NCBI GenBank assembly: GCA_040753175.1
Contig: JBFMEW010000019.1
Span: 112,300-144,299 of the forward strand
Origin: Acidobacteriota bacterium
GTDB taxonomy: Bacteria; Acidobacteriota; Terriglobia; Versatilivoradales; Versatilivoraceae
DNA length: 32,000 bases
Direction: 5' to 3'
Positions within the stretch are counted from its first letter, which is position 1. Every line of letters starts with the position of its first letter. A model generated the notes under the pieces. It did not search any database. It saw only the letters and a program-made list of their open reading frames with translations, and was not told where the DNA came from. The position numbers and the translations under genes are program-made. Shown piece after piece: positions 786 to 32,000 of this stretch.

Positions 786-807
786 GCTGGGTCCGGCCGG
801 GTTTCGC

Positions 808-4155: not shown

Positions 4156-4346
4156 AAGTACGAACTGAGGTAGCCGGATCCTCGTCGAGCTTCCAGCGAA
4201 CCGATCTTAGGCCTTTCATGACTTTGATACCGATGCGACGCGTCAGGCGACAGAACAAAGGCTGGGCTTGCCAACCAATGTCTTGGTAACGCCGGTTCCG
4301 ACGGCGGCGCGGGCCCGAACCGGATCTCGCTTGAAAGGAGGGAAAC

Positions 4347-5357: not shown

Positions 5358-5393
5358 ACCGCATTCTGGTTGAGTTGCCTACACGGTTATCAA

Positions 5394-5407
5394 GGCCTCT
5401 TGAGGCC
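5394..5407. terminator. Short GC palindrome in the convergent gap between galT and the cytochrome operon; weak bidirectional terminator candidate
   Basis: GGCCTC-TT-GAGGCC is a perfect inverted repeat lying between two converging genes. There is no clear U-tract, so support is weak. Confidence 0.2.
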
Positions 5408-5464
5408 CGATCAGACAAGACCTATCCGTACATGGCAAAGGAACAGTTGTGGAATGGGGTTTTC

Positions 5465-6574: not shown

Positions 6575-6613
6575 CCTGCACCTCCTTGTGATGGCTGTCG
6601 AGCCCCTGGGCTG

Positions 6614-9003: not shown

Positions 9004-9435
9004 TCAAGTTTGCCGTGTAATGAAGACTTCGTCCCCGCGGACCCGCACCGCAAAGGCCTCGAGAGGTCTTGGTGGCGGTCCGGACACGACCTTTCCATTG
9101 AGGTCGAAAAGGCCGTTATGACAGGCGCACCAGATGTGCTGGGTGGACTCCTGGAACTGCACCGTGCAGTTCAAATGCGTACAGACGGCGGAAAACGCAC
9201 GCCACTCGGTTTCCGTAACACGAATCAGCAGCGCCGGACGACTGCCGAACTTCACGATCTTTCCCGTGTGAGGTTTCAAGTCGTCAACCTTGCCCGCGAC
9301 CACCTCATTGGTGGAGGCCTCGGGGACGGGCGGCGGATTCATGAATTTGATGGCTGGATAGAAGAACGAGATGAGGGACGCGGTAAATCCGCCTCCCAGA
9401 AGCCAGCCGACAAAGCTACGACGTAGTGTGGCCAC
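9004..9435 (-). CDS. Rieske [2Fe-2S] iron-sulfur subunit
   Basis: Twin-arginine-like N-terminus TLRRSFVGWLLGG followed by a TM helix. Cluster-binding boxes CTHLNC and CACHNG (the CxH...CxxH pairs). Confidence 0.85.
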   Translation of the reverse strand: MATLRRSFVGWLLGGGFTASLISFFYPAIKFMNPPPVPEASTNEVVAGKVDDLKPHTGKIVKFGSRPALLIRVTETEWRAFSAVCTHLNCTVQFQESTQHIWCACHNGLFDLNGKVVSGPPPRPLEAFAVRVRGDEVFITRQT

Positions 9436-9577
9436 CGACCCTCCTTGCTCAGATTTAAGATGTTTCGAAAGAGGCTTCTTGTCTCGATGACTGCTTAAGA
9501 CAACAAAAGCGCCTTATTGTGAGCCAGTCTAGAGAATGGTCAGAACGCGAATCGGAACCGTTAGAGCATGAACTGGT

Positions 9578-9598
9578 GTTGCATATTGCAACAATTGT
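9578..9598. promoter_or_regulatory. AT-rich palindromes upstream of the Rieske operon; candidate operator or promoter region
   Basis: GTTGCA-TAT-TGCAAC (9578-9592, 6 bp arms) is immediately followed by the 8 bp palindrome ACAATTGT (9591-9598). They lie about 145-160 bp upstream of the Rieske ATG, in the most AT-rich part of a 790 bp gene-free region. The function is inferred only. Confidence 0.25.
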
Positions 9599-10222
9599 GC
9601 CAAGTTCGCAGTGTTGTGGCTTTGCTTGCGAAGTAGAGTACCACTCTTTTGTTCCTTTGCCCCACAAAACCCAGGCCCCAGTCTTGAGCATTGCTTTGCC
9701 ACTACGGAACGGTACCGGAATGAGGCGTGACCCAGCCATGAGCCTCCGTTGCCGTGAAATCGAAGCTGGTGGCTCGGCTTCCGTGTATCTGGACTCGGCC
9801 GATAGTGCCGCCGGGAATGGGAACAACGCTATGGAGATTGACCTGCCCCAGCGTTTCGGAGCGCGGACGAGCTTGAGGGCTAGGTGCTCTGGAATCGTGT
9901 CAACAGGGCCTGCCTAAGGGATGGAACCGGCCCTGACTTGGAGTCTTGCCCGTCCAAATGAGCGGGGGAATTGAACCAAGATTGTGGCAAAACACGCAGC
10001 GCCAGGAAAATTTAGCAGGGAGGGAGTTTGCAATCTTACGGCTTGTCAACTCCGGGAGGATGGCGATACAGTACCGGTTGTTGAGATCCCCCGATTTCCA
10101 ACGCTGCCTCCCGGATTGTGCTCCGCTCCCGCTCGGCCACCTATCCGATGATCTCGCACCACTCGCAACGAGACGACTCATACGCAATCATTCGATCAGC
10201 GCATGTTGCATGGAGGTGACCC

Positions 10223-11845
10223 ATGCTGCTGGGCATCGATTTTGGAACCACCCGGACACGCGTCGCCGTCGAAAGCCAAGGGTCCTATTCACTGGTTGAG
10301 TTCAGGGCTAAAGATGGCTTCGACCAGGACTGGTACCCCTCTTTGATCGCCGCCCGCAGAGACGAGGCTTTGTTTGGCCTGGAAGCTCGGGCGGTCCAAT
10401 ATGATGCCGACTGGGAACTCTGCCGTTCGTTCAAGCGGCTGTTGAACGATGGCCATCCACAGTCTGTGCTGAGAATCGGTGGGATCGATCAGACTCTGTT
10501 AGAGTGGTTCACCCAATACCTGCGGACGCTGCGTGAACATTTGCTTCATGATAGCAGCCTGGAAGTCGAGGCCGGGGAGCCCTTGCGGGTGATTGCCGGT
10601 GTCCCCACGAATGCCAACAGCAACCAGCGTTTTCTCACTCTGGAGGGCTTTCGCCGGGCCGGTTTCGAGGTGCTGGGCATGCTGAATGAACCCTCGGCCG
10701 CCGGCATTGAGTTTTCTCACCACTACCAGTCCTCCAGGAGAAGTCATCGAAACAAACACCTGGTTGTCTACGACCTTGGAGGCGGAACGTTCGATGTCTC
10801 GGTGATTCGAATGACCGGCCTCCAGCATGATGTGGTCGGCAGTGAGGGAATTGCCCGGCTCGGAGGAGATGACTTCGACGAACTGCTTCTGGAGCTGGCC
10901 CTGGACCAGCCCACCGTTGATCCGCTCGTGCGAAAGAATCTTCGCCTCGCGGCGGGTGGGATCCTCATCCCCCCCTTTTCGGCGGGCGTTCGTTCGCGAA
11001 TGCTGAATCTCTGTCGCGAGGCCAAGGAAAGCATTGGTCCTGCAACCAGAAGGATCAGCGTCGATTTCAGTCAATTAGGGATCGTGTCGGACCTGGCATT
11101 GGTGCCGATCGACCGATTCTACGAAAAGTGCCAGTCGGTGATTGCGTCCACCATTGAAGCCACCGAATCTGCTTTGAATCGCGCCTTCGGAAACTCAGAA
11201 CCGGGCCAGGACGATGCGGCCCATGTTTATCTGGTGGGCGGTTCCTGTGACCTGCCTGTCTTGGCTCGCGCCCTGAAACAACGCTTCGGAAAGCGAGTCC
11301 GCCGGTCCCCCTATCCCGCCGGGGCCACCGCTACGGGGCTGGTACTGGCTGGGGCCAAAGAGAGCGGAATTGAGATTAAGGAACAATTCAGCCGGTTCTT
11401 CGGAGTCTGGAGAGAAAATGACTCGGGTGCTCAGCTGGCTTTCGATCCCATTTTTGCCAAGAACACGGTGCTGCCGGGTCTCGGGGATCGGCCCCTTGTA
11501 GTCACTCGCCGTTATCGTCCCATGCACAACATCGGACATCTGCGATTCCTGGAGTGCAGCCGGCTGGCAGAAACCGGGCAGCCCCAGGGAGACATCATCT
11601 CCTGGGACGAAGTGTATTTCCCCTACGATCCTGCGCTGATCGAAAACACGGCTCTGCATCTGGTTCCGGTGGAGCGTTGGCCCGGCGCCCAGTCTCACTG
11701 TGTAGAGGAAACCTACCGATGCGACGCGCAGGGCATCATCGAAGTCACCATCGTTAATGCCACCGCCGGATACTCCCGTCAGTACCGGGTCCGACAGACT
11801 CGAGGAGAGGTCGCTAAGCGCAAAACAGCCCACGTCGGTTCGTGA
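10223..11845 (+). CDS. Atypical Hsp70 family ATPase: complete actin-like NBD and a short beta-rich C-terminal domain, with no helical lid and no EEVD
   Basis: GGAGGTGA RBS. NBD motifs MLLGIDFGTTRTRVA (phosphate 1), VVYDLGGGTFDVSVI (phosphate 2) and VYLVGGSCDLPVL (adenosine). The last 170 aa or so are beta-rich and end at RQTRGEVAKRKTAHVGS. Confidence 0.8.
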   Translation: MLLGIDFGTTRTRVAVESQGSYSLVEFRAKDGFDQDWYPSLIAARRDEALFGLEARAVQYDADWELCRSFKRLLNDGHPQSVLRIGGIDQTLLEWFTQYLRTLREHLLHDSSLEVEAGEPLRVIAGVPTNANSNQRFLTLEGFRRAGFEVLGMLNEPSAAGIEFSHHYQSSRRSHRNKHLVVYDLGGGTFDVSVIRMTGLQHDVVGSEGIARLGGDDFDELLLELALDQPTVDPLVRKNLRLAAGGILIPPFSAGVRSRMLNLCREAKESIGPATRRISVDFSQLGIVSDLALVPIDRFYEKCQSVIASTIEATESALNRAFGNSEPGQDDAAHVYLVGGSCDLPVLARALKQRFGKRVRRSPYPAGATATGLVLAGAKESGIEIKEQFSRFFGVWRENDSGAQLAFDPIFAKNTVLPGLGDRPLVVTRRYRPMHNIGHLRFLECSRLAETGQPQGDIISWDEVYFPYDPALIENTALHLVPVERWPGAQSHCVEETYRCDAQGIIEVTIVNATAGYSRQYRVRQTRGEVAKRKTAHVGS

Positions 11846-18602: not shown

Positions 18603-19070
18603 TCAAAGGTTGGGCAGTGGAGCGTCGTGTGGGGAGTCCTCAACCTGCCGGGCGATGGAATCGAAAAAGTGCGAAATGGTCTGTTTCGCGAAGCCTTGTA
18701 CCATTCTTTGGCCCACGCTGGCGATGAGGCCGCCAATCTGAACTTCGCCTGAGTAGAGAACGTTGGTGTTCAATCCGGCGTCCTCCAACCGGATGGCGCC
18801 CTCTCCTCTTACAAAACCGAGGGCTCCATTCCCTTGGATCGCCAACCGGTACTGCGAGGGTGGTTCCTGATCTGAGACCCGCACGCGGCTGGTGAAGGTG
18901 CCTTTGATGGCGCCGATGCCAAACTTCAGGCTGGCCTCGTAGTTGTCATCGCCCAGCGGCTCCATTTTTTCGCATCCCGGGATGCTTTTGGCGATCACGT
19001 GGGGGTCGATCAGGAAATTCCAGACTTTTTGACGTGGCGCACTGATCAGGTGGGTTCCTTCAATTTTCAC
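18603..19070 (-). CDS. CoxG-like SRPBCC-fold protein (carbon monoxide dehydrogenase subunit G family)
   Basis: GTG start with a GGAGAAA RBS. KIEGTHLISAPRQKVWNFLIDPHVIAKSIPGCEKMEPLGDDNYEASLKFGIGAIKGTFTSRV matches the CoxG pattern. Confidence 0.7.
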   Translation of the reverse strand: MKIEGTHLISAPRQKVWNFLIDPHVIAKSIPGCEKMEPLGDDNYEASLKFGIGAIKGTFTSRVRVSDQEPPSQYRLAIQGNGALGFVRGEGAIRLEDAGLNTNVLYSGEVQIGGLIASVGQRMVQGFAKQTISHFFDSIARQVEDSPHDAPLPNL

Positions 19071-19193
19071 GAGGTATTTCTCCGCAGGAGAGGATAGGCC
19101 GGTCCGGCAGGCTCAAAGGGGAGCTTGAAATGCGAGGGGGCCACTTCAAACGACCGTGTGGCCCACGAGTGATTGCCCTTTGGGTGCACTGGC

Positions 19194-20060
19194 CTATTTG
19201 ATACGAGCAAAGGCCGTCTCCAGGGCCCTGCGGGTGTAGACCTTGGCCAGGTGCAGACGAAATTCCTCAGAAGCATGCAGGTCGGAGAGGGCTTCCACCC
19301 CTTCCACGGCCTTCTGGGAGGCTTTCTGGATGAGGTCACTGTCCACTTTCCGGCCCTTCAGGGCCGCCTCCACAGCCCTGGCCCGGTAAGCCTTGGGTGC
19401 GATTCCCGTAACGCCAATGCCTGCCTGTTGGCAAACCTGATTGGCGTCCACGGTCAGACAAGCGGCCACCCCTACCAAAGCGAAGCCTGAGGCTTGCTGG
19501 GCCATTTTGAGATAGCAGCCCCCTGTCCGAGCGGGCAGGCGAGGCACTCGGATTTCTGTGAGTAACTCGTTGGCCTGAAGTGTCGTGGCCAACATTTCCA
19601 GGAAGAAGTCCTCGGCCGGGATCCGGCGCTCCCCCGCTTTTCCCACCAGTTTGAATTCAGCGTCGTGCGCCAACATGGCCGCCGGCCAATCGGCTGCGGG
19701 ATCAGCATGGGCCAGGCTTCCACCAATCGTTCCTCTGTTTCGCACTTGAACGTCCCCGATTGCGGCCGCGGTCTCGGAAAGCAACGGGCATTTCTGCTGA
19801 AGAAGAGCCGAACTCTCCAGGGCATGGTGCGTCGCCAGCGCTCCAATCACAATGGCTCCGTTCTCCTCCCTGATGGAGTCCAGACCCCGGATACGACCGA
19901 TGTCTACGATATAGCGAGGCGCGGCCAGCCGGAGCTTCATCTGGGGGATCAAACTGTGGCCTCCGGCCAGAACCTTGGCCTCCTCCTGGTGTTTATCCAA
20001 CAGGTCCAGGGCCTCCTGAACCGACTTGGGAGCATAGTATTCGAAAGAGGTGGGAATCAT
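19194..20060 (-). CDS. FAD-binding medium subunit of a xanthine dehydrogenase/CODH-family molybdenum hydroxylase (CoxM-like)
   Basis: AGGAGGA RBS. MIPTSFEYYAPKSVQEALDLL...AKVLAGGHSLIPQMKLRLA and IGDVQVRNRGTIGGSLAHADPAADWP are FAD-binding PCMH-type motifs. Confidence 0.8.
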   Translation of the reverse strand: MIPTSFEYYAPKSVQEALDLLDKHQEEAKVLAGGHSLIPQMKLRLAAPRYIVDIGRIRGLDSIREENGAIVIGALATHHALESSALLQQKCPLLSETAAAIGDVQVRNRGTIGGSLAHADPAADWPAAMLAHDAEFKLVGKAGERRIPAEDFFLEMLATTLQANELLTEIRVPRLPARTGGCYLKMAQQASGFALVGVAACLTVDANQVCQQAGIGVTGIAPKAYRARAVEAALKGRKVDSDLIQKASQKAVEGVEALSDLHASEEFRLHLAKVYTRRALETAFARIK

Positions 20061-20213
20061 GCCTTGTGTCCTCCTGTCGTGTGCGAACCCCTCGAGTCTC
20101 TTAGCCTTCCTTCACCCGGCGCCGGTTTCCTCTGCTGAGGTCCGATCCGGCTCTGGTTGGGCAGGCAGCAGCGACCGCTGCCTGCACCGATGTTGAATAC
20201 CCAGGGTGGTTGT

Positions 20214-22541
20214 TCACGGCTTTTCTTTAACCAATTGCCAGATCTTTTCAGGGGTCAGCGGCATATCGATGTGCCGGACACCCAACGGCGACAGCGCGTC
20301 CACCACCGAATTCACCAGGGCGGGGGAGGCGGCAATGGTACCGGCTTCGCCCACTCCTTTGGCTCCCAGGGGGTTTACAGGTGACGGCGTCTCCGTGCGG
20401 TCCGTTTCCATTCGCGGAATCATAGTGGCTTTGGGGACGGCGTAATCCATATACTCCCCGGTAATCAGCTGGCCGATGTCGTCGTAAACCACCTGCTCGT
20501 AAAGGGCCTGCCCCAGCCCCTGCGCAACGCCACCGTGCACCTGCCCATCGACCAGCATGGGGTTGATCACCTTGCCGCAGTCGTCCACCGCGACATAACG
20601 TTTGATCTCGATCTGCCCGTTGTCACGGTCGATTTCACTGACCACCAGGTGGGCGCCAAACGGGAAAGCGAAGTTTGGAGGCTCCCAATAGTTCGTGCAC
20701 ACCAGACCGGGCTGAGTTTCCGGTGGCAGCTTCGAGGCCTTGTAGCTGGCCGCTGCAATTTCGGGTAAACCCACCGTCTTCCCGGTCTTGTTGCAGGTAC
20801 AGACCCCGGCGGCATATGTCACGTCCTCGGACTCGAGCAGCATGGCGCCGTACCGTTCGATCTTGTCCTTCAATTCTCGCAGGGCCAAAAACAAAGCCGT
20901 CCCGCCCACGGCCGTGTTTCGGCTTCCGAAGGTTCCCACCCCATGCTGCACGGTGGCTGTATCGCCGTGGAGTACGACGACGTCCTCGATACCGATCCCG
21001 AGTTCGTCGGCGGCAATCTGGGCAAACGTCGTCTCGGCCCCCTGGCCGTGAGGAGACACCCCGGTCATGACCGTCACACGACCGGTCGGCTCGACCTTGA
21101 CCGTTGCACTTTCCCAACCTCCGACCGGAAGTGCCGGCGAAGGGCCGAATGCGCACACCTCACCATAGGTGGAGAGCCCAATTCCCATCAGTCGTCCCTC
21201 CTGGCGAGCCTTCTTCTGTTCCTGGCGCAGTTGCTGGTATCCGGCAATGTCGAGGGCTTTCTGCAAAGGCGCGGCATAGTTTCCACTGTCATAGGACAGG
21301 CCCGTCGGGGTTTCATAGGGGAATTCGCTGGGCTGGATGAAATTCTTGAGCCGGATGTCGACCGGATCCATCTTCAGTTCGGCCGCCAGGATGTCCACCA
21401 TGCGTTCAATCCCGTGAGTGGCTTCAGGCCTGCCGGCCCCACGATACAGGTCCGTCGCCATCCGGTTGGTGAAGGCCCCCACGATATCGGCCCTCACGTT
21501 TCGGAAGCGGTATAGCCCGGGTATCATCAAAACGGACAGCGTTGGGATGGCCGGCGTCAGCAACATGTGAAACGCGCCAATGTCCTGAATCAGCTTGAGC
21601 TTCAGCCCGAGCATCGTGCCGTCTTTCTTGGCGGCAATCTCGAAGTAATCCACATGGCCGCGGCCGTGGATGGTAGAGAGAAAGTCCTCGCGCCGCGTCA
21701 GCACCAGCTTCACCGGCTTGCCGATCTTCATCGAGATGAACGCCGTCAGAGCTTCTTCGGCGTAGAGTTCGCATTTGCTGCCAAATCCACCCCCCACCTC
21801 AGGAGCCACCACCCGCAACTTATGCTCCGGCAGCCTTAACAGTTGCGAAAGCAGGGTTCGCACGATGTGCGGGATCTGGGTCGAGGTGTACACCGTCAGG
21901 GCCTGATCGCCCAAGTTCCAGATGGCCACCGTTCCCCGCGGCTCCATGGCCGAGGGAATCAGCCGCTGGCTGACGATCCGCTCCTTGACGACCACGTCGG
22001 CTTCGGCGAAGGCCTTGTCCACCTCGCCCCCTTCCTGGTGATAGGTGAAGGCGACGTTATCCGGCCACTCCGGATGCACTGCGGGCGCCCCCTTTTCAAG
22101 CGCCTTCTCCGGATCCGAAATGGAGGGCAACGGTTCGTAGTCGACTTCAATCAGGTCCACCGCGTCCCGGGCGATGTAACGATCCCGCGCCACAACCGCC
22201 ACGACAGGATGACCCACGTAGTACACCCGGTCCCGAGCCAGCAGCGAATGGTGAGGAACACGTAAGTCGGGAAGCGAGATGCCGCAGGGCACCGGGCCAA
22301 CCTCGGCGACATCCTTTCCGGTGAACACAGCCACCACCCCAGGTCGTTCCAGAGCGGCGGTGCTGTCGATCTTTTTGATCTTGGCGGCAGCATGTGGACT
22401 TCGCAGGATCGAGACGTAGTGCATGCCCGGCAGCTGGATGTCTTCGACATAGGTTGCGGTGCCTGTAATCAGCCGGGGATCCTCCCGCCGTCGCACGCGT
22501 CTGCCAATGAAAGGTTCGGCTTTGGTAACGGTCGTCTCCAT
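20214..22541 (-). CDS. Molybdopterin-binding large subunit of an XDH/CODH-family hydroxylase (CoxL-like, form-II-type active-site loop)
   Basis: METTVTKAEPFIGRRVRRREDPRLITGTATYVEDI is the canonical N-terminus. The start at 22541 lies 6 nt after the small-subunit stop. The active-site loop reads DLYRGAGRPEA rather than the AYxCSFR of bona fide form-I CO dehydrogenases. The C-terminal region is GVGEAGTIASPALVNSV. Confidence 0.85.
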   Translation of the reverse strand: METTVTKAEPFIGRRVRRREDPRLITGTATYVEDIQLPGMHYVSILRSPHAAAKIKKIDSTAALERPGVVAVFTGKDVAEVGPVPCGISLPDLRVPHHSLLARDRVYYVGHPVVAVVARDRYIARDAVDLIEVDYEPLPSISDPEKALEKGAPAVHPEWPDNVAFTYHQEGGEVDKAFAEADVVVKERIVSQRLIPSAMEPRGTVAIWNLGDQALTVYTSTQIPHIVRTLLSQLLRLPEHKLRVVAPEVGGGFGSKCELYAEEALTAFISMKIGKPVKLVLTRREDFLSTIHGRGHVDYFEIAAKKDGTMLGLKLKLIQDIGAFHMLLTPAIPTLSVLMIPGLYRFRNVRADIVGAFTNRMATDLYRGAGRPEATHGIERMVDILAAELKMDPVDIRLKNFIQPSEFPYETPTGLSYDSGNYAAPLQKALDIAGYQQLRQEQKKARQEGRLMGIGLSTYGEVCAFGPSPALPVGGWESATVKVEPTGRVTVMTGVSPHGQGAETTFAQIAADELGIGIEDVVVLHGDTATVQHGVGTFGSRNTAVGGTALFLALRELKDKIERYGAMLLESEDVTYAAGVCTCNKTGKTVGLPEIAAASYKASKLPPETQPGLVCTNYWEPPNFAFPFGAHLVVSEIDRDNGQIEIKRYVAVDDCGKVINPMLVDGQVHGGVAQGLGQALYEQVVYDDIGQLITGEYMDYAVPKATMIPRMETDRTETPSPVNPLGAKGVGEAGTIAASPALVNSVVDALSPLGVRHIDMPLTPEKIWQLVKEKP

Positions 22542-22546
22542 TGCGC

Positions 22547-23011
22547 TTACCTCCTCACCTGGGTGGCCGCAGCTTTCACCGCGTTGACGATATGCTGATA
22601 GCCCGTACAGCGGCAAAGATTACCCTCGAGTCCATGGCGGATTTCCTCCTCCGTGGGCTGCGGATTTCGCTCGAGCAGTTCGCTGGCTGCCATCAGCATC
22701 CCGGGAGTACAAAAACCGCATTGCAAGCCGTGCTCGCTCCAGAAAGCCTCCTGGAGAGGATGTAATCTGCCGTTGGTCGCCAACCCCTCGACCGTCAGCA
22801 CCTCCCGGCCGTCGGCTTGAACGGCCAAAACCGTGCAGGACTTGACGGCGTGGCCGTCCAGCAGAACCGTGCAGGCTCCACAAAGCGTTGTTTCGCAGCC
22901 GATATGAGTTCCCGTGAGGCCCAAGACCTCCCTCAGGTAGTGAACCAACAGCAGTCTGGGCTCAACCTCAGACTCGTAACGGGAGCCGTTCACGTTGACG
23001 GTGATCTTCAT
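22547..23011 (-). CDS. [2Fe-2S]-binding small subunit (CoxS-like)
   Basis: GGAGGT RBS 7 nt before the ATG at 23011. [40 protein letters not shown] and [10 protein letters not shown]...NLCRCTGY are the two 2Fe-2S cysteine clusters. Confidence 0.85.
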
Positions 23012-23220
23012 CGCATGAACCTCCGCATTCATGCCTACTGGCCCAGGCCGCTTGTGTGTTCGGAAAAAGGACCGAAACTGCCCGAAGCTACCCTGGCCTG
23101 ATATGTTGTCGATGTTCGCTGCGGATCTTACTTCCCTTGAGAACGAAAACTCAAGACGAAAGTGAGTGCGAGCCAGCCAAGGCCAGCAACGGCCGTCCCC
23201 AACCCAGATCGCCGGCCGTG

Positions 23221-23811: not shown

Positions 23812-26082
23812 TCACAGCACTTTGCCGCTGGACGTGATCGTCATCTTCTTGCCGTAGGGATTCTCGCCCATTACTCTTCCGTCCCTCAGAACTCGGAACG
23901 AGTGGTCTCCCATTTCGACGTCGTAAAAGTGGCCTCGAAAACGGTAATCGCGCATCACGGCCTTTCCGTATTCGTGATGATACGAGGGCGAGATTTCCAG
24001 CGTCCCGTCGATTTGGGGTGCCAGGCCGAAGATCCCGAACAAAATGGCTTCGATTCCAGCCCCAGAGGAAATCTCCAGGGGCATGGATGACATGTCCTGC
24101 TCGGCGCGATCGGTCCTTGGGTTTTGGGGGATGTATGGGAAATAATCAATATAGTCCATGAATCGTTTCAGAATATTCCAGCCCAGTTCCGAATGACCGC
24201 TGCGGTAAAGCGATAGCGCGATGCGCAACGGCATGCCGGGGTATTGGCCGCCGCCTCCCCAATCGGCGTCGATCAAGTCCCAATGGATCCGATCCGTCTT
24301 GGAGATCGAGTACATCCCAAACCGGCCCAGAAACGCTCCCTCCTTGATATGGGAGATCAGCCGCTCTCGCTGGGCCGGGGTGAGGACGGGCGTCCCCAGA
24401 AGATCGTAGAGGTGGTAGCTGTAAACCAGCTCTCGATTTCCATCCGGAAAGAGGTTATCGAACCAGCCGGCTTTCTCGTTCCAGAGTTTCTCGTGAAAGG
24501 ACCGAGAGAGTTGATCGGCATAGCGCTGGAATTTGGCGCCGTCCGGATCCTCTCGTTCCCGGCCCCATCCGGCCAGATGTTGATAGAGCCAGATCGTGAG
24601 TCCATTGGTTACCGGAACGACGTTGCAGTAACCGTCCGTGCGAATCTCCACGATCTTTTCGGTATTCAAGCCGATGTCGATCAAGCCATCCTCGGGACGG
24701 CCGTACTCGTCGTGCAAGACCGTTCCCCATTTCTTCATCCATTCGTAAACGGTATGTCCTTCCAGCCGGTAGTCCAGAAAAGCCACGTCGCCAGTCTGCT
24801 TGAAGTAAGCTTCCAGCATCATCAGCAGGGCGAAAGGCTCCTGCAGATAAAGAATGTCACCCTCCGCACCGCGCCAGCTGATATAGGTTTGTTTCAGCTT
24901 GCCCTCTTTAAACGGGATCAGGATGGCGTCGCGCATGCTGCCTGGATCCAGCAGGCTCAGGACATGAGCGCTGAATGAATTATCCCAGGTGATGGTGTAG
25001 ATCCAGGTGCCCACGGCCCAGAATGGGTTCAGGATGAAGTCGTTTCTTTCCCAACGGCACTCCATGACGCTCAGCAGGCAGCGATTGTAGAACTCCTCCA
25101 GCTTGGGGTAATTGCTGGTGACCACGGGCAGCCGCTCCGCCGCCCAGCGCAGCCGGGCCCGCGTGTCCCGATGGGACTGCTCCATGCGATCCGGAATGTC
25201 TTGTTGATGGAGATCGGGCGTTTCGTTTGAGACGGGCTGCAGCACAATGGCGAAGTAGGCCGTGGCGGTTTCCCGACCAGGGATGGTGAGGTCCCAACCC
25301 TTTTCAGTGCGCTGAGCGAGCGTGCTGGCCAGAGTGATCCGGGCTTGCTCGCTTTCCAGCCGGAAAGCGTCGCGCTTTGTGACAGCCGTCGAGCCCTTGG
25401 CTGAATCTCTGGCGAGTCGCGAGGCGGTCTGGTTGGGAAGGATAGCCAGTTCCAGGGGCTCGCTTCGCCGGTTCGTGATTCGGAGCTCCAGGTAGATCTC
25501 GTCGACACGGGCCGAGACGGAAGCCTTTGTTTCCATCGCAAATGAAACCCAGCGCCCACTGTACAGCTTGTGGAAGGTTCCCATCCGATGATAGAGATTG
25601 GGCTGCCAGATCTCGTCCTGGGTCACCATCACGGTGGGAGAGTTCGGACGAAAGTTCGAACCCAGCGGATCGAAGCTCTTCCCGTGGCTCAGGTAGTCTT
25701 TCCACATGTCCGCCACGTCGTCCTGAATCAGCGTGGCGCTCTTCTTGTCCAGGAAATCGAGGTTGAAGTTGTAATCCGAAGAAGAGATCGGTAGGAACAG
25801 AATGTTGTGCAGACCGGTCAGAGTGTATTCCTGAACGTTGACGGCGCCACGCCCATTGAACAGCCGCAACTGGGCGTCGCTGAAGTGCATCCGCGCGCGA
25901 GGCATCTGCAGCATTTCGGGAGTCAGAACGTGAGGAGTGGGCGTGGAGACGACGTTCGAAGGATCCAGGCTCGACTGAGAATAGGCCCAAGGCGAAAACC
26001 AGACGACCAGAAGTACGGCGGAAGCCCAAGAAGGCAGGGTGCGACCAGATTGAAACGGACGATTGATGCAGTGGGTGGCCAT
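23812..26082 (-). CDS. Large secreted hypothetical protein; possible (alpha/alpha)6-barrel glycoside-hydrolase-like protein flanked by beta-sandwich domains
   Basis: AGGAGGT RBS. Signal-like SWASAVLLVVWFSPWAYSQ. 756 aa. The central region carries ITWDNSFSAHVL, a WD(S/N)xF-type motif recalling the GH63/GH37/MGH clan, and helix-rich repeats. The functional call is tentative. Confidence 0.4.
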   Translation of the reverse strand: MATHCINRPFQSGRTLPSWASAVLLVVWFSPWAYSQSSLDPSNVVSTPTPHVLTPEMLQMPRARMHFSDAQLRLFNGRGAVNVQEYTLTGLHNILFLPISSSDYNFNLDFLDKKSATLIQDDVADMWKDYLSHGKSFDPLGSNFRPNSPTVMVTQDEIWQPNLYHRMGTFHKLYSGRWVSFAMETKASVSARVDEIYLELRITNRRSEPLELAILPNQTASRLARDSAKGSTAVTKRDAFRLESEQARITLASTLAQRTEKGWDLTIPGRETATAYFAIVLQPVSNETPDLHQQDIPDRMEQSHRDTRARLRWAAERLPVVTSNYPKLEEFYNRCLLSVMECRWERNDFILNPFWAVGTWIYTITWDNSFSAHVLSLLDPGSMRDAILIPFKEGKLKQTYISWRGAEGDILYLQEPFALLMMLEAYFKQTGDVAFLDYRLEGHTVYEWMKKWGTVLHDEYGRPEDGLIDIGLNTEKIVEIRTDGYCNVVPVTNGLTIWLYQHLAGWGREREDPDGAKFQRYADQLSRSFHEKLWNEKAGWFDNLFPDGNRELVYSYHLYDLLGTPVLTPAQRERLISHIKEGAFLGRFGMYSISKTDRIHWDLIDADWGGGGQYPGMPLRIALSLYRSGHSELGWNILKRFMDYIDYFPYIPQNPRTDRAEQDMSSMPLEISSGAGIEAILFGIFGLAPQIDGTLEISPSYHHEYGKAVMRDYRFRGHFYDVEMGDHSFRVLRDGRVMGENPYGKKMTITSSGKVL

Positions 26083-26576: not shown

Positions 26577-26894
26577 TCACCCCGAGTCGTCGATGACCAC
26601 CGAGATGCCTTGCTTTCTCATGAAGTCCGCGATCTTTAGCGCAATCCGTTTACGGTCTGCTTCCGTGAGCGGCTCGTCCTGATGCGGCGGCAGCCATCGC
26701 CTGATGGTTGAGGAGTAGAGTACCCGGCTGGGATCGCCCTTCAACAGTTCAATCTGAAGCCGTAAACGGCGCTTTCCTTCAATGTACTGGTACTCGTCGC
26801 GCCCCGTTGGAATCAGTTGGGAGGACTCGTCCATTCGCGTTTCATGAACGATGCCGAGCCGGACCAACGCTTGCCAAAGAGCCGCGAATCTCAT
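26577..26894 (-). CDS. Small hypothetical protein, family B copy 1 (candidate immunity protein)
   Basis: The ATG at 26894 gives MRFAALWQALVRLGIVHETRMDESSQLIPTGRDEYQYIEGKRRLRLQIELLKGDPSRVLYSSTIRRWLPPHQDEPLTEADRKRIALKIADFMRKQGISVVIDDSG. It is identical to copy 2 at 72 of 106 hand-aligned positions. The 48-codon upstream extension is not conserved in the paralogues. Confidence 0.6.
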   Translation of the reverse strand: MRFAALWQALVRLGIVHETRMDESSQLIPTGRDEYQYIEGKRRLRLQIELLKGDPSRVLYSSTIRRWLPPHQDEPLTEADRKRIALKIADFMRKQGISVVIDDSG

Positions 26895-27024
26895 CGGGTT
26901 GTGCCCCTTGCAGATTGAGTTAAGAGTCTCGTCACTTGAAGGTGCGGGACCCAGCGTGGTCGCGAAAGTACCCGGGGGATCGCCTGACGGGTTCCACTCA
27001 GCATAGCGATCTCGAACGCAAGAG

Positions 27025-27345
27025 CTACTCCGAGTCATCGATGGCCACGGAGATACCTTGCTTTCTCATGAAGTCCGCGATCTTTTGCGCAATTCGCTTG
27101 CGGTCCAGATCCGTGATGGGTTTGTCCTCATGGGGGGGCAGCCACCGGTCTATCGAAGAAGGATAGATGAGTTTGCTGGGGCGTCCCTTCAGCATGTCGA
27201 TTTGGAGCGTCAGGGTGCGTTCGCCTTCGACGTACCGGTATTCGTCTCTCCCAATCCTTATGAGTCGAGAGTAGCGGTCGATCCGTGTTTCACGAGCGAT
27301 GCCAAGCCGGACCAACGCTTGCCAAAAAACGCTTAAGAAACGCAT
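27025..27345 (-). CDS. Small hypothetical protein, family B copy 2 (candidate immunity protein)
   Basis: 106 aa, MRFLSVFWQALVRLGIARETRIDRYSRLIRIGRDEYRYVEG...RWLPPHEDKPITDLDRKRIAQKIADFMRKQGISVAIDDSE. Conservation between paralogues argues that it is really coding. Confidence 0.65.
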   Translation of the reverse strand: MRFLSVFWQALVRLGIARETRIDRYSRLIRIGRDEYRYVEGERTLTLQIDMLKGRPSKLIYPSSIDRWLPPHEDKPITDLDRKRIAQKIADFMRKQGISVAIDDSE

Positions 27346-27534
27346 GGCAGGTTTACTTCCAGTCAGAACGATTCGTCGTCAGGAAGGTCAGCAGTCCCGA
27401 CGGTCCGGCACAAGCGGCTCGTTCACGGAAAGCCGGAATCTCAGACGAGCACCATCGGGCCAGGGGGTCTTTAAGGGGCTCTGATCCTCCCGCCATGGGA
27501 CTAGCCCTGTCCTGACTGAACCGCCGTACTCCCA

Positions 27535-27846
27535 TCATCGGATTTCGACAGAATGACCCTGTCGGTTGAGGAACTCCGAGATCTTCCCGGCAATTCGCTC
27601 TCGCTCGGTTTCGTCGATGTCCTCTCTCTCGTGCGGCGGCAGCCAGCGATCGATGGAAGATCGATCCAGCATTCTATCGGGCGTTCCGGAGAGCATCTCG
27701 ATGTAAACGTTCACCCGCCGTGCTCCTTCCACGAACTGATACTCGTCCCGGCCCAATCGGATCAAGTGAGAACTCCCGTCAATTCGTGTCTCCGCGCCGC
27801 CCAGGCCCAGTCGCAGGGTGCGGCGGATTTTCAAAAGGATGCTCAT
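27535..27846 (-). CDS. Small hypothetical protein, family B copy 3 (divergent; candidate immunity protein)
   Basis: The ATG at 27846 gives MSILLKIRRTLRLGLGGAETRIDGSSHLIRLGRDEYQFVEGARRVNVYIEMLSGTPDRMLDRSSIDRWLPPHEREDIDETERERIAGKISEFLNRQGHSVEIR. It shares the GRDEY.(Y/F).EG and RWLPPH motifs with copies 1 and 2. Confidence 0.6.
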   Translation of the reverse strand: MSILLKIRRTLRLGLGGAETRIDGSSHLIRLGRDEYQFVEGARRVNVYIEMLSGTPDRMLDRSSIDRWLPPHEREDIDETERERIAGKISEFLNRQGHSVEIR

Positions 27847-27901
27847 GTCTGTCTCAGTCCAGACCGGAACAATCGCAGGTTCGGACCAAATCGATTTGCG
27901 A

Positions 27902-28393
27902 CTACCGCTTCCATCCAAACTTTTCGGCCTGCGCGCCCCACTTCTGAAAAGCCATCTCCTTAGCCCGTTGTTTCACCACCTTGTCCAGGTCGGCGAAGAC
28001 CTGAAAGTTTCCGGCCAGAACTTCGCCGGCATAGGTCTTGAGATTGTAGGCTTGGCCTAGGACGGCGTTCAACAGCACATTCTCCCCCTTCGGGGATGGG
28101 CCGGGCCTGCCGCCTTTCAAGAACACCAAGTCATCCAGATCGAAGGTGAAGAGTTCCGTGTCGGGCCTAATCTCCCCGACAGGCATGACGATCTCGCCCT
28201 TCATCAATCTGGCGAGTTGTACCAGAACAATCAGGCCGCGATTCTCCAGAGTCACCACCACGCCGGTGGTTTTGTTCTGGGTGGAAAACCGCTCACCCCA
28301 GGAATGGCGCTGTTTGCTGGCGCCCTTGCATCCATAATCGGACTTGAGAAAGGCGAAGTGGACCTCACAGGCATCGAAGAATGGATCGCTCAT
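27902..28393 (-). CDS. Hypothetical 163-aa protein (candidate immunity protein) in the RHS-associated island
   Basis: GAGGAGG RBS then ATG at 28393. The product is MSDPFFDACEVHFAFLKSDYGCKG...VVVTLENRGLIVLVQLARL...FADLDKVVKQRAKEMAFQKWG. The 59-codon Arg/Cys-rich upstream extension of ORF 27902..28570 is rejected. Confidence 0.55.
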   Translation of the reverse strand: MSDPFFDACEVHFAFLKSDYGCKGASKQRHSWGERFSTQNKTTGVVVTLENRGLIVLVQLARLMKGEIVMPVGEIRPDTELFTFDLDDLVFLKGGRPGPSPKGENVLLNAVLGQAYNLKTYAGEVLAGNFQVFADLDKVVKQRAKEMAFQKWGAQAEKFGWKR

Positions 28394-28506
28394 TGGCCTC
28401 CTCTCACCGCCGCCGGCCTGGAAGCGGCCCTGGCTGCTTAGCCACCGCCACCCTCGAACTGAAGGACAGATTCGAGTGCTCTTTCTTGCCCGACACCGCG
28501 TCGGAA

Positions 28507-28917
28507 TCAGACGACAGACTGCAAAAGGTTGGACACGAAATCCGGGTCGTCGATCTCTTCCACCGAGCATCGCCGGATCTCCCGATAGTCGAGCAATCGC
28601 TGAAAGCTGCCGAGAAAACGGCGCACTTCACGTCTGGTCAGCAGATAGAACACTTGATGATCCTGCGCGTAGTTGGGGTTCAGTCCCAGGGTAATTTCCA
28701 CGTACCCAAAGATCTTTTGTCTCCGCAATCGCCTTGCCGGCCAATCTCCGTGGATATTCGAAAGAAATCGAAGCTTGCCTCTGGAGGCCATACTTCTCAT
28801 CACGACCTCTGTCGTGACTAGATGCTTTTGAAACTGAATCCAAACCGCCATGGAGAAATCTACCCGGGCGCCCCCGGAATCGCCTGGATAAGAGTCCTTC
28901 GATATCATCGCAGCCAC
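28507..28917 (-). CDS. Hypothetical protein, family A copy 2
   Basis: Paralogous to 28994..29419: GDWPARRLRRQKIFGYVEITLGLNPNYAQDHQVFYLLTRREVRRFL aligns with GGWPARRVRRLRALAFSEVQIVLNPNFLQNEKRFYQLNRHTARSLF. The start is uncertain (GTG at 28917 or ATG at 28908). Confidence 0.55.
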   Translation of the reverse strand: MAAMISKDSYPGDSGGARVDFSMAVWIQFQKHLVTTEVVMRSMASRGKLRFLSNIHGDWPARRLRRQKIFGYVEITLGLNPNYAQDHQVFYLLTRREVRRFLGSFQRLLDYREIRRCSVEEIDDPDFVSNLLQSVV

Positions 28918-28993
28918 GGTCAGCCCCGACGGATGCTCCTGCTTTCAGGCGGCACACCAAAATGACTCAACCACGGGAAACCGTTTTCGCTGT

Positions 28994-29419
28994 TCAGAAG
29001 CTTGCCAGGGCATCATTCAGGTCTCTGACCAGCAATTCCCGATTTGCCAAATCAACCACCGAGTAGACCTTCACTGTCTGAAAGGCTGTTGTCTTCTCCC
29101 GGTGAAACAAGCTTCGAGCGGTGTGCCGGTTCAGCTGGTAAAAGCGTTTTTCGTTTTGAAGAAAATTGGGGTTTAAGACGATCTGCACTTCAGAGAACGC
29201 GAGGGCCCTGAGCCTTCTTACTCTGCGAGCCGGCCAGCCACCACCTCTCACCTTCAGGTCGGTCAGAAACAACAGGCGGCACTGGGTTGCTGCCAGACGC
29301 ATGATCCCGTCAACGGTCGCCAGATCGCGTTGGCACTCGATCCAGCTTTCTAGAGGAAAGAGGAAATCCGCCTGTCCTTCATCGCCTCGCAAGTACGCAT
29401 CCAGCGAGAACTGCTTCAT
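28994..29419 (-). CDS. Hypothetical protein, family A copy 1
   Basis: GGAGGTG RBS 3 nt (GAA) before the ATG at 29419, so the GTG at 29431 lies inside the RBS. The product MKQFSLDAYLRGDEGQADFLFPLESWIECQRDL... is conserved with copy 2. Confidence 0.6.
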   Translation of the reverse strand: MKQFSLDAYLRGDEGQADFLFPLESWIECQRDLATVDGIMRLAATQCRLLFLTDLKVRGGGWPARRVRRLRALAFSEVQIVLNPNFLQNEKRFYQLNRHTARSLFHREKTTAFQTVKVYSVVDLANRELLVRDLNDALASF

Positions 29420-29456
29420 TTCCACCTCCACTTAGCGACGCCGCCTTTCACGCCTT

Positions 29457-29753
29457 TCACGATTGCAGTATGACCTCCGGCAAATTCATGGCATAGCCCT
29501 TGTGAACTCGAACGTCGCCATGAACAAAGATGTCACCCGCAATTGCTGAGCAAGTCCAGTTGATGGCAGACACTTCCTTGTCTACGGGCGAGAAAATGAT
29601 CCTACCGCTTTCGTCTGTTTCTTTACTTTCCAACGGTAGCCGCGAATCATCATCCCAGCTGTAAACTCGCTTTTGAATCCGCTGGCCCTGGTAGTTGTAA
29701 GCAAACTCGATCTTCTGTCTAGCGGCCGTGGGAACCGCGGCCATCGCCTCCAT
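29457..29753 (-). pseudogene. Orphan RHS fragment: the first 33 codons repeat a pre-core segment of the upstream RHS gene, then continue into 65 unrelated codons
   Basis: MEAMAAVPTAARQKIEFAYNYQGQRIQKRVYSW aligns with MEAMATVPVAAKLELEFAYNYQSRRIQKRVYSW in the main gene, 25 of 33 identical by hand. It has no RHS core (no GRWLxRDP or DPxG-type junction). An in-frame TAA lies 12 codons upstream of its ATG. Confidence 0.55.
29655..29753 (-). repeat. 99-nt direct repeat, copy 2 (homologous to 31860..31958)
   Basis: Codon-by-codon DNA comparison shows shared blocks atggaRgcgatggcc and gagtttgcttacaactaccag...cggattcaRaagcg...tacagctgg. Confidence 0.7.
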
Positions 29754-29818
29754 GGGGCCTGACCCGAAGCTGACCCGAGGTCGGTAAACTTAAGCGCGGT
29801 TCGGCCACCTACACTGGA

Positions 29819-30703
29819 CTATTGAGTTCGCGCCGTAAGCCGAGCGAACTGTTTGGACGAAAGGTCTCGAATATAAGAGTCCGTGCTTTTCGAAGCTTGC
29901 TGCAGGGCGGGTAGGAGCACCCTTAAATCAAAAAGTGCTGCAGGAAGCTGGTCGATTTCTCGCAGAGCCACACCAGCGGAACGTCTATCGGCGATCAGAA
30001 CGCTTGCCAGCGCATCGGTTCCTTGAGTGTCAGTGGGTTGACCCTTTAGAATCGCCAAAGCTGCATACAGGCGTGCTTCTCCAGCCAGCCCACTCAGACG
30101 ACGTCGTAACTCTGGCATGGCGTCACTGCCAAGGGGACTTAGTTTGTAGAGCGCCATGCTTGCGGATTTCTGCATTGTAAACTCATGAATACTTCCTTCA
30201 GGTCCTTTCTCATCCAAGCTCTTAATCAGTGCTGGTACCGCTGATCTGGCTGCAGGCCCAAGATTCCCCAATGCATCTGCCGCCAACCAGCTAGAGTCCT
30301 CCGCTTTGTATTCCATCAGCACTCTGACCAGTCCACCCACTGCGGGTTCGGCCTTTGCTCCGTACTGACCGAGCCCTTTCACCGCATATCTCCGTACATA
30401 GGGATCCTCGTCTTCTAGCTTTTCAATGAGAAGAGGTACTAACGCATCTCCCAAAGCTTGGCAATGGTGCACTCCCAGATTTCCAGCTACCGACGTTGCT
30501 TGAGTTCTGATCGTCCGATTCTCGTGGGTCAGATAGCCTGTGAGTTGGGTGAGGCTTGCCTTATCAAAGGGGTTTGACTCCAGCAGCCGACGCAAGTTGT
30601 GAATTTGCTCGATCTCCTTTCTCAGTTCAACTTGCCGCATCTGAGCACACCCGGTCAGAGAAACAATAACAATCGCCGCCAGCCGAGAGAGTTTCTGATT
30701 CAT
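29819..30703 (-). CDS. HEAT/ARM-like repeat lipoprotein; positional candidate for the cognate immunity protein of the RHS toxin
   Basis: The start lies 22 nt after the RHS stop. MNQKLSRLAAIVIVSLTGC carries an LTGC lipobox. Repeated helical pairs are visible (LTHENRTIRTQATSVAGNLG, LEDEDPYVRRYAVKGLGQYG, AEDSSWLAADALGNLG, SKSTDSYIRDLSSKQFARL). Composition is AT-rich: 27/60 G+C in 30181-30240. Confidence 0.65.
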   Translation of the reverse strand: MNQKLSRLAAIVIVSLTGCAQMRQVELRKEIEQIHNLRRLLESNPFDKASLTQLTGYLTHENRTIRTQATSVAGNLGVHHCQALGDALVPLLIEKLEDEDPYVRRYAVKGLGQYGAKAEPAVGGLVRVLMEYKAEDSSWLAADALGNLGPAARSAVPALIKSLDEKGPEGSIHEFTMQKSASMALYKLSPLGSDAMPELRRRLSGLAGEARLYAALAILKGQPTDTQGTDALASVLIADRRSAGVALREIDQLPAALFDLRVLLPALQQASKSTDSYIRDLSSKQFARLTARTQ

Positions 30704-30725
30704 CTATGGACTTTCCATGCCAACA

Positions 30726-32000
30726 TCAAAAGTCGAAGGGATTTGGCATTGGCCCCCTTTGAATTGTGGGGGGCACTTTGACCTCCCCTAACTCGCCTCC
30801 GAAGCGAGCTTTTATTTTTGCCCCGATATTCTTGAGATAAATTGTCCAAAGAGCTTTCTGATCTTCGCGCCCCAGGCTTTCGCCAAGTCTATTGAAGATT
30901 CCGCGCGGGCGTTCCCAAGCCTCAGTCACCATATTAATGTCCAGCGGATTAGGAGAGAGTTGATCAACGCGCCACTTTCGGACACCAACTAATGGGTGCC
31001 CTCCAGCCGTTATCGCCTTCGTCTCATCGTCGTTATTGCCTTTGAGATAAACTGGAAATCTTTCATTTACAAGGTTTAACAGGATATCATTGACCGGATT
31101 CTTTAGGTCGAAATAGGCCATCCCATCTGGTGTCAGTCTAACTGCTGCAACATTCTCCTGGGGATCATTCAAGCTCGCAAACCTTGAGAAATCATCGTAG
31201 ACAAAGTTCTTCACTCTTTTGAAGTCGGTTTCTCTAAGACACTTCACCTCCAAGCTGTGTATCGTGTAGGTCCATAATGTTGTCTCTCTGAGCTGCTCCT
31301 TATGCGGCTTCGGCTTAAACCATCTTGACGGAACAGTAGGAAGACCTATTCTTCCATCAGCGTCGATGAAGTCGGTTGGAGCATTGTAGACAAACCCATA
31401 GAGATTCCTGTCACCGATTTCCTCGCTTGGATCTCGTCCAAGCCATCGTCCCGTCACGGGCACGTAGTGCCTATATCCATAGTAGACAAAATCGGTCTCC
31501 TGATCTTTGTATTTCACGCCAATTCCAAAAGGATTGGTCGTAGCATAGTCTCCGATCTGGACCAGCGTTTCTCCGAAAGGGCTGAATTCGTAAGAAGCAG
31601 CAAAGGAACCGCTGCTACCCTTCGTTAGGGCGATCACGTTCCCGTTGCCATCGTAGGATGGAATGTAACTCTCGCCCGAATCGCTAATTACTAGGAGCCC
31701 ACCAATCCCACCGGCGCCTTGCAGCGTGCCACTCAGGTCTTGGCCCCAGAGGTAGCTGCGGATGAGGTTGTCGCTGGCGTCGAGCTCGGCCACAAGGTTC
31801 CAGCCGCCGTAAACGAATCGAGTCGTCGATTGAAGCTGATAGGAGCCGCTGCTTGCATTCCAGCTGTAGACGCGCTTCTGAATCCGGCGGCTCTGGTAGT
31901 TGTAAGCAAACTCCAGCTCCAGTTTGGCAGCCACTGGAACCGTGGCCATCGCTTCCATCGCCATCAGCCGGTTTTCGGCATCCCAGGTGTAGGTCCAGCG
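30726..32000 (-). CDS. RHS/YD-repeat polymorphic toxin: C-terminal portion with the RHS core plus an unassigned 207-aa toxin tip; the 5' end lies beyond the right edge of the window
   Basis: The frame is open to position 32000, reading RWTYTWDAENRLMAMEAM... (a YD repeat). The RHS-associated core reads LWGQDLSGTLQGAGGIGGLL, YDGNGNV, YEFSPFGE, YYGYRHYVPVTGRWLGRDPS, NLYGFVYNAPTDFIDADGR. This is followed by a C-terminal domain I cannot assign (30729..31349). Confidence 0.85.
   Translation of the reverse strand, partial: RWTYTWDAENRLMAMEAMATVPVAAKLELEFAYNYQSRRIQKRVYSWNASSGSYQLQSTTRFVYGGWNLVAELDASDNLIRSYLWGQDLSGTLQGAGGIGGLLVISDSGESYIPSYDGNGNVIALTKGSSGSFAASYEFSPFGETLVQIGDYATTNPFGIGVKYKDQETDFVYYGYRHYVPVTGRWLGRDPSEEIGDRNLYGFVYNAPTDFIDADGRIGLPTVPSRWFKPKPHKEQLRETTLWTYTIHSLEVKCLRETDFKRVKNFVYDDFSRFASLNDPQENVAAVRLTPDGMAYFDLKNPVNDILLNLVNERFPVYLKGNNDDETKAITAGGHPLVGVRKWRVDQLSPNPLDINMVTEAWERPRGIFNRLGESLGREDQKALWTIYLKNIGAKIKARFGGELGEVKVPPTIQRGPMPNPFDF
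31860..31958 (-). repeat. 99-nt direct repeat, copy 1 (inside the RHS gene)
   Basis: See the 29655..29753 entry. This is a plausible recombination substrate for swapping or deleting C-terminal modules. Confidence 0.7.

Follow-up and report, generated by a model that had tools for sequence, protein, structure and literature searches.

The region described here, positions 26577-32000 of a 32,000-nt window, lies on contig JBFMEW010000019.1 of a metagenome-assembled genome (MAG) from an Acidobacteriota bacterium and contains the 3′ end of an RHS gene with a train of small genes behind it. A six-frame list of open reading frames (ORFs) gives nine in all, each on the minus strand: the RHS gene, a HEAT-repeat lipoprotein gene, a fragment of RHS character, two genes of a family termed A, a gene for a 163-aa protein and three genes of a family termed B (Table 1). 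Order and coordinates agree with an earlier note made from the sequence alone, which had described a minus-strand RHS gene at the window end and eight small genes of the same strand behind it. Counted from the RHS end, the intergenic gaps are 22, 65, 25, 76 and 113 nt, after which the genes overlap slightly or are at most 189 nt apart. The train is presumably co-transcribed; a promoter and terminator scan, itself at chance level overall, gave no minus-strand terminator-like site within it, which is weak evidence. The locus is very probably the 3′ end of an RHS polymorphic-toxin gene, joined by a cognate immunity gene, which encodes the HEAT lipoprotein, and an island of orphan immunity genes. 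The succession of RHS toxin, cognate immunity and extra immunity genes had been the main proposal of the earlier note, and it is supported here.

Position 32000, the end of the window, is also the end of the public contig of 144,299 bp, and the RHS gene is cut at this point, 424 codons ahead of its stop. The corresponding NCBI record, MEW5978123.1, is named ‘RHS repeat-associated core domain-containing protein, partial’ and has the same length of 424 aa. Exact look-ups of the HEAT protein and of family A copy 1 returned no contig, and the RHS N-terminus was not recovered. The Rhs-associated core model TIGR03696 (Rhs_assc_core) matches residues 140-216 of the 424 with 56.5 bits against a cut-off of 32.5 (E=3e-15), and the core domain terminates in ...NLYGFVYNAPTDFIDADGR. 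As the contig stops within the gene, only the last RHS repeat is visible, as a weak match of 19 bits, below the cut-off of 22 (E=0.0019). RHS genes of 79 other genomes, mostly Verrucomicrobia, were found by scanning a genome collection that did not include the source genome with the RHS C-terminus; they are 38-55% identical and align to residues 1 to ~220 only. The last 207 aa are read as the variable tip since these related genes align no further. With an Rhs-associated core, a variable tip and a downstream immunity gene all in place, the earlier identification of an RHS/YD-repeat toxin gene stands.

The base composition changes at the junction of core and tip. The five hand counts of G+C in the earlier note proved exact on recount, at 39 per 60 nt in 31741-31800, 21 in 31021-31080, 27 in 30181-30240, 29 in 29101-29160 and 33 in 27121-27180. 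The final 624 nt of the gene, which encode the tip, have a G+C content of 47.3%. This is lower than in every 624-nt stretch within positions 1-26000, for which the minimum is 51.6% and the median 57.8%.

The tip has no match beyond chance level in Pfam, NCBIfam, PADLOC or the sequences of the PDB, the last of which were also searched with a tip profile, and a word-index search of 5.8 billion proteins returned no match. With an exhaustive HMMER search of 1.84 billion proteins, 122 cluster representatives were obtained at E<=1e-3. In nearly all of them the match runs to within ~30 residues of the C-terminus, and the RHS core-end motif stands just ahead of the domain in at least 38 of the 69 tip proteins that have an upstream region. 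Relatives with the same tip are RHS proteins of 1300-3700 aa; the RHS_repeat model was matched by all five sizeable homologues (679-2266 aa) among nine scanned, and by the 3698-aa protein P0065. No Pfam match covers the domain in any of the 19 homologues scanned. Judged from these searches, the tip family is a genuine, unnamed C-terminal module of toxin type, and the tip of the window is presumably toxic.

The full-length relatives P0022, P0027 and P0038 have Sec-type signal peptides at the N-terminus. Upstream of RHS genes of the tip family, at 1095-2284 of locus L082 and at 3770-4998 of JGI contig ABF7V2Qn, there is a gene for a 173-aa protein together with one for a protein of ~220 aa, the latter a DUF1573 protein in L082. 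These may form a conserved accessory pair for Sec-exported RHS proteins of this type.

An AlphaFold2 model of the tip, built on a 48-sequence alignment, has a mean predicted local distance difference test score (pLDDT) of 91.1 and a predicted template-modelling score (pTM) of 0.87. Its elements follow each other as one strand, a helix, six strands and a long C-terminal helix, which is the helix-grip order. Foldseek finds 80 PDB structures similar to the model at E<=1e-3; the 50 that were listed are without exception START/Bet v 1/SRPBCC proteins and include 2pcs, the CoxG structure 2ns9, PYR/PYL receptors, norcoclaurine synthase and the CERT START domain. The best E is 3.6e-6, with template-modelling (TM) scores up to 0.66 when normalised on the target. 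Sequence profiles do not place the tip in any named SRPBCC family (Polyketide_cyc, COXG, Bet_v_1 and others). On the strength of the model, the tip is taken to share the START/Bet v 1/SRPBCC fold, and no membership of a named family is claimed.

In the alignment of the tip family, T114, H118, G122, R124 and W168 (tip numbering) do not vary, position 146 holds either Glu or Asp throughout, and W126, T142, N153, Q164 and Y171 are 90-98% conserved. The conserved residues fall on the even-numbered positions of strands 109-115, 120-133 and 136-148, and follow an i/i+4/i+7 pattern on the helix 157-183. In the model, T114, H118, R124, T142, E/D146, N153, Q164 and Y171 would thus share one face of three adjacent strands and one face of the C-terminal helix. 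This would be the face at which START domains hold their ligand.

The window also encodes a CoxG, an SRPBCC-fold protein with no sequence relationship to the tip. Its gene lies at 18603-23032 with genes for molybdenum-enzyme subunits of the xanthine dehydrogenase / CO dehydrogenase type (Fer2_2, MoCoBD, FAD_binding_5). The tip was considered as a sequence relative of this CoxG, and the idea was rejected when profile comparison showed no relationship.

The gene 22 nt downstream of the RHS stop encodes a HEAT-repeat lipoprotein, as had been noticed earlier, and the NCBI record names its product as a HEAT protein too. The HEAT_2 model is matched with 42.4 bits against a cut-off of 27.7 (E=9e-11), and the N-terminus, MNQKLSRLAAIVIVSLTGC, contains the lipobox L-T-G-C. 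A HEAT gene directly follows the tip in 12 distinct loci, window included. Four RHS proteins with this tip were looked up, and each of the four has a HEAT gene immediately behind it (Table 1). A metagenome scan with a tip motif from an eight-sequence alignment gave 19 loci. Ten of the downstream proteins were scanned, and seven matched HEAT_2, namely those of L091 (with the near-identical L092 and L093), L094, L095, L096, L098, L101 and L104. The HEAT partners are 24-30% identical to the HEAT protein of the window, and ten of 11 have an N-terminal hydrophobic signal or lipobox, often with Cys next. Because the adjacency of tip and HEAT gene recurs in 12 distinct loci, the HEAT gene is read as the cognate immunity gene, in line with the earlier expectation that this gene would directly follow the tip. 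By gene order, then, the HEAT protein is the cognate partner of the tip and would protect against it. The lipoprotein is predicted to face the periplasm.

More distant tips, with 27-33% identity, are followed not by HEAT proteins but by proteins with 3-4 predicted transmembrane segments; the partners in L089/L090 and L105 were counted as neither type. Since the immunity partner is exported, and the distant tips pair with multi-pass membrane proteins, the toxin would be expected to act outside the cytoplasm, and a site of action in the cell envelope is the probable one. A lipid or lipid-linked envelope target is the best guess, because the tip combines a lipid-binding fold with an extracytoplasmic immunity partner, and it is put forward tentatively.

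The tip could be supposed instead to act in the cytoplasm, for example on nucleic acids or the ribosome, in keeping with the cytoplasmic enzymes that make up the majority of described Rhs tips (PMC3482391). The HEAT protein would then serve as an export or maturation accessory, or capture toxin only during its passage through the periplasm of the producer, and one of the small downstream genes would provide the true immunity. The toxins of the HEAT-repeat immunity proteins listed so far are indeed of nuclease type or unknown, namely Tox-REase-7 and Ntox34, and the Sec export of RHS relatives means that the producer's own periplasm meets the toxin. It is nevertheless only the HEAT gene that stays beside the tip across loci, and L084 and L085 have no small immunity-like gene after it. 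Family A is paired with a different tip and Imm74, the family of the three B genes, with ADP-ribosyl cyclase (ARC) toxins, as set out below, and the integral membrane partners of the distant tips point to the envelope. A cytoplasmic site is accordingly considered unlikely.

The two family A genes are paralogues, as the earlier note had held (39% identity, E=7e-23). No member has a Pfam match, and only 18 homologues were found in 5.8 billion clusters. An AlphaFold2 model of family A has a pLDDT of 85.7 and is alpha/beta; against PDB folds it gave nothing significant (best E=0.05, TM ~0.2), and the fold is left unnamed. The family has an invariant basic motif, G-[DS]-W-P-A-R-R-L-R, together with M44-R45, E81 and N87, which is unusually conserved for an immunity family.

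The genomic context of family A is more telling. An overlap of 4 nt between a family A gene and the stop codon of an RHS gene is seen in L109 and in L087/L088, the latter from a Terriglobia MAG. The RHS tips of these loci are homologous (49% over 120 aa), Trp/Gly-rich and unnamed, and have no Pfam match. In L002, what is left of this tip, 118 aa with 55% identity, directly precedes a family A gene. In L001, the RHS tip is followed by an Imm74 gene and then by a family A member that is 60% identical to copy 2; in both L001 and L002 family A lies within 1.5 kb downstream of the RHS genes. The contigs of L086 and L108 begin too near the family A gene to show an upstream neighbour. Copy 2 has a ratio of nonsynonymous to synonymous substitution rates (dN/dS) of 0.09-0.16 against the L001 and L086 members. 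An immunity role follows from the adjacency to the Trp/Gly-rich tip in L087/L088 and L109 and to its remnant in L002. As far as gene context can tell, family A is the immunity family of this tip, and the two copies in the window are orphan immunity genes.

Family B consists of three tandem paralogues, as described earlier, with mutual identities of 50-69%. All three score above the PF15603 gathering cut-off of 27.1 bits, and NCBI names their products ‘Imm74 family immunity protein’, with lengths of 103, 106 and 105 aa. The likely starts are placed at 27846, 27345 and 26894 because of these lengths. The conserved columns of the family are kept in all three genes, and copies 3 and 2 are 69% identical with a dN/dS of 0.18. 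Imm74 has been paired with Tox-ARC and occurs in heterogeneous polyimmunity loci (Zhang et al. 2012, PMC3482391). The Imm74 protein Tci1 partially rescues growth inhibited by Tac1, an ADP-ribosyl-cyclase toxin that depletes NAD(P)+ (JBC 2025, PMC12356396). As the window contains no ARC toxin, all three are taken as orphan immunity genes.

The RHS tip of L001 has directly behind it an Imm74 gene that shares 57% identity with copy 2. From the Imm74 pairing this tip (8990-9916) would be expected to be an ADP-ribosyl cyclase, and this candidate identity is left unconfirmed, as the tip has no Pfam match and only chance-level hits among PDB sequences. The Imm74 profile likewise gave only chance-level hits among PDB sequences.

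The 163-aa protein has no match in Pfam, NCBIfam or PADLOC, and a word-index search returned only the protein itself. A relative of 40% identity is encoded at 9920-10534 of L002, inside an RHS-downstream array in which a distant paralogue and a shortened copy of the family are found as well. For the 163-aa gene, the proportion of nonsynonymous differences (pN) is 0.39 and that of synonymous differences (pS) 0.81. An orphan immunity gene is the best reading of its sequence context, which comprises two loci, the window included. L002 itself opens with a 2494-aa NHL-plus-RHS protein (35-7745) whose tip is Pfam TNT, an NAD+ glycohydrolase (E=2.8e-25). A gene for a 74-aa protein follows, and then the array with family A and the three relatives of the 163-aa protein.

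The earlier note had found eight downstream genes that it could not name, and had suggested that some components may be new families. Standard profiles name four of the eight, the HEAT gene and the three Imm74 genes, so both statements fail for these. The A and 163-aa families are unnamed. The note had also raised the alternative that part of the train belongs to an independent and unrelated system. Under this reading family A, the 163-aa gene and family B would be, for example, a toxin-antitoxin or phage-defence system. The conservation of the motif GDWPARRLR, unusual for an immunity family, would suit it, as would the lack of a naming profile or fold match for family A and the 163-aa family and the absence of these families beside the 79 other RHS genes. 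PADLOC, however, reported HEAT repeats only, and family B is Imm74. At two independent loci family A overlaps the RHS stop, and at a third it comes after what remains of the same tip; the sole recurrence of the 163-aa family is within an array downstream of an RHS gene. An independent system thus finds no support and appears extremely improbable.

The fragment ORF between the HEAT gene and family A does repeat part of the RHS gene, as had been observed. RHS residues 15-51 recur with 70% identity in its first 37 aa, and at the DNA level positions 29651-29753 match 31856-31958 over 103 nt with 82% identity and sharp homology edges on both sides. The relic derives from ~165 codons ahead of the core end. 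Its last 62 aa have no match in 109 loci, and the exact product is absent from the protein collection. These 62 codons were considered as the end of the partner toxin of family A and rejected, being unlike the L087/L109 tip. The ORF is probably a scar of recombination or deletion rather than a working gene.

A parallel to this relic is found in L082. At 9401-10986, right after the HEAT gene, lies a piece of RHS core that shares 89% identity with residues 1355-1438 of the RHS protein of that locus, and it is followed by IS66-type transposase genes. The two fragments look like scars of recombination that installs cassettes of tip and immunity genes. The orphan toxin module or tip suggested earlier was not found in the train; there is only the core relic of ~100 nt, and the remaining gaps of at most 189 nt leave no room for a further tip.

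The earlier note had named purifying selection on the small ORFs as a check. In ten of ten comparisons of paralogues or orthologues pN is far below pS, with dN/dS of 0.09-0.24 where synonymous sites are unsaturated. This bears on the suggestion that the downstream ORFs are the decaying and functionless remains of former toxin cassettes. Such decay would fit the fragment ORF, which is plainly a relic, and the absence from the window of cognate toxins for family A, the 163-aa gene and Imm74. The seven ORFs are all intact, however, under the selection just described, and the Imm74 copies keep their conserved columns. Orphan immunity genes are, in addition, a recognised functional class, the ‘heterogeneous polyimmunity loci’ (PMC3482391). 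Decay is for these reasons judged very unlikely.

Table 1. Features of the region (positions in the window) and of related loci (positions in the locus named).
Feature	Position	Strand	Remarks
RHS 3′ end, whole visible ORF	30726-32000	-	stop codon 30726-30728; 424-aa translation
RHS core, 3′ part	31350-32000	-	TIGR03696; runs off window and contig
C-terminal putative toxin tip, 207 aa	30726-31349	-	unnamed family, predicted START/SRPBCC helix-grip fold
HEAT-repeat lipoprotein, 294 aa	29819-30703	-	HEAT_2 and lipobox; cognate immunity candidate
98-aa ORF, RHS-core relic	29457-29753	-	relic at 29651-29753, then 62 codons
Family A copy 1, 145-aa ORF (141 aa per NCBI)	28994-29431	-	candidate orphan immunity gene
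Family A copy 2, 136 aa	28507-28917	-	39% identity to copy 1, E=7e-23
163-aa protein (‘family C’)	27902-28393	-	candidate orphan immunity gene, unnamed rare family
Imm74 copy 1, 103 aa from likely start	27535-27846	-	ORF to 27918; PF15603 37.6 bits
Imm74 copy 2, 106 aa	27025-27345	-	PF15603 44.0 bits
Imm74 copy 3, 105 aa from likely start	26577-26894	-	ORF to 27038; PF15603 39.6 bits
Tip protein P0022	L082/L083		HEAT gene directly after tip
Tip protein P0027	JGI contig		HEAT gene directly after tip; no DNA returned
Tip protein P0029	L084		HEAT gene directly after tip
Tip protein P0028	L085		HEAT gene directly after tip
Distant tips with membrane-protein partner	L099 638-1237; L102 895-1494; L106 999-1619; L103 1842-2309; L107 4597-4941		
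Trp/Gly-rich tip	L087 2289-2771; L109 2012-2377; L002 8135-8488 (remnant)		motifs GGFFAxLWTPxTSD; terminal GGGxEYxxGWxWP

The next gene past the train, at 23812-26082 and 494 nt from it, has a glycoside-hydrolase domain match that is sub-threshold only. An Rfam scan of the region returned nothing relevant, and PADLOC nothing relevant beyond the HEAT-repeat match.

Several observations weigh against the interpretation of the locus as a toxin gene with its immunity island. Relatives of family A, family B, the 163-aa family, the HEAT protein and the tip are all absent from the 79 other RHS loci, so that the association with RHS genes anticipated in the earlier note holds for family A, the 163-aa family and Imm74 in a few loci and fails at those 79. 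The associations of these three small families consequently rest on few loci, and that of the 163-aa family on a single locus besides the window. The likeness of the tip to START proteins is one of fold, with TM of 0.4-0.66 and identities of 9-16%, and hhalign of the tip against the CoxG of the window gave a probability of 0.1. The lining of the pocket by conserved residues is read from the periodicity of the secondary structure. It is conceivable that the exported partner is not an immunity protein and has an accessory role. The contig does not include the RHS N-terminus, so the trafficking domains and the secretion route are not readable from the gene.

The best explanation that can be offered is as follows. 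The RHS shell would carry a 207-aa cargo of START fold after the core-end motif. The toxin would act in the periplasm or on the membrane, where it would most likely bind or cleave either a lipid or a lipid-linked precursor of the envelope, and the HEAT lipoprotein would block it there through direct binding. The two family A genes, the 163-aa gene and the three Imm74 genes would shield the cell from the toxins of its neighbours, each presumably giving protection of its own. The core relic of ~100 nt would be the scar of the recombination that installed the low-G+C cassette of tip and HEAT gene.

A bolder version of this explanation, less likely than not, would make the tip the founder of a new family of toxins that act on the envelope. 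The START pocket may have been turned into an enzyme, with the invariant His and Arg and the acidic residue, that cleaves or traps a lipid-linked intermediate of the wall or membrane. The HEAT lipoprotein would then represent a new class of immunity protein, and family A with the Trp/Gly-rich tip a second undescribed pair. Undecaprenyl-linked precursors would be the obvious candidate targets if the tip were such an enzyme.

The layout of the locus is that of textbook polymorphic-toxin grammar and leaves the understanding of such systems unchanged. The tip family is rare yet real, with 122 representatives among 1.84 billion proteins, and the START fold has barely been recorded as a toxin. The consistent presence of exported HEAT partners or membrane partners suggests an envelope or lipid target. 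Family A, although unnamed, can now be linked to a cognate tip. The three tandem Imm74 genes suggest that a soil Acidobacterium stockpiles immunity against NADase toxins that are not carried in this locus.

The polymorphic toxins described by Zhang et al. (PMC3482391) share with the window an Rhs core, a variable tip, a drop in G+C at their junction, and an immunity gene with a core fragment and further immunity genes behind it. The window differs in that its tip lies outside Pfam and NCBIfam, its immunity protein is apparently an exported lipoprotein, there is no orphan tip, and the N-terminus is missing. The orphan toxin-immunity modules of Rhs loci, which consist of a core 3′ end, an alternative tip and an immunity gene, have no counterpart here, as the island holds immunity genes only. 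The Imm74 copies resemble Tci1 in passing the PF15603 cut-off, and the L001 Imm74 gene directly follows an RHS tip, whereas the copies in the window are orphans with no adjoining ARC toxin.

HEAT-repeat immunity proteins have been listed with Tox-REase-7 and Ntox34 (Zhang et al. 2012, PMC3482391). As in those systems, a HEAT-repeat protein is encoded directly after the toxin tip; unlike them, the HEAT protein of the window pairs with a tip of START fold and not with a nuclease, and its lipoprotein signal predicts that it works outside the cytoplasm.

A START-like toxin domain behind a lipobox and a Cystatin-like domain has been described with a BamE-like, membrane-anchored immunity protein and a predicted lipid target (Burroughs et al. 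2025, PMC12419801). One sentence in that paper is the only mention of a START-like toxin domain found in the literature. These Cystatin-domain toxins are alike in their C-terminal toxin domain of helix-grip/START type, their membrane-anchored or periplasmic immunity and their predicted lipid target. The tip of the window differs in standing behind an RHS shell and in having a HEAT partner; the domains were compared by description, not by sequence. Colicin M and TelC/TipC (reviewed in PMC12419801) likewise have immunity outside the cytoplasm and, as is proposed here for the tip, a lipid-linked envelope intermediate as target. Their folds are unrelated to that of the tip, for which such a target is suggested by fold and partner. 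What appears to be new in relation to all of these is the pairing of an exported HEAT lipoprotein with an RHS tip of START fold, together with the assignment of family A, by context, to a second unnamed tip.

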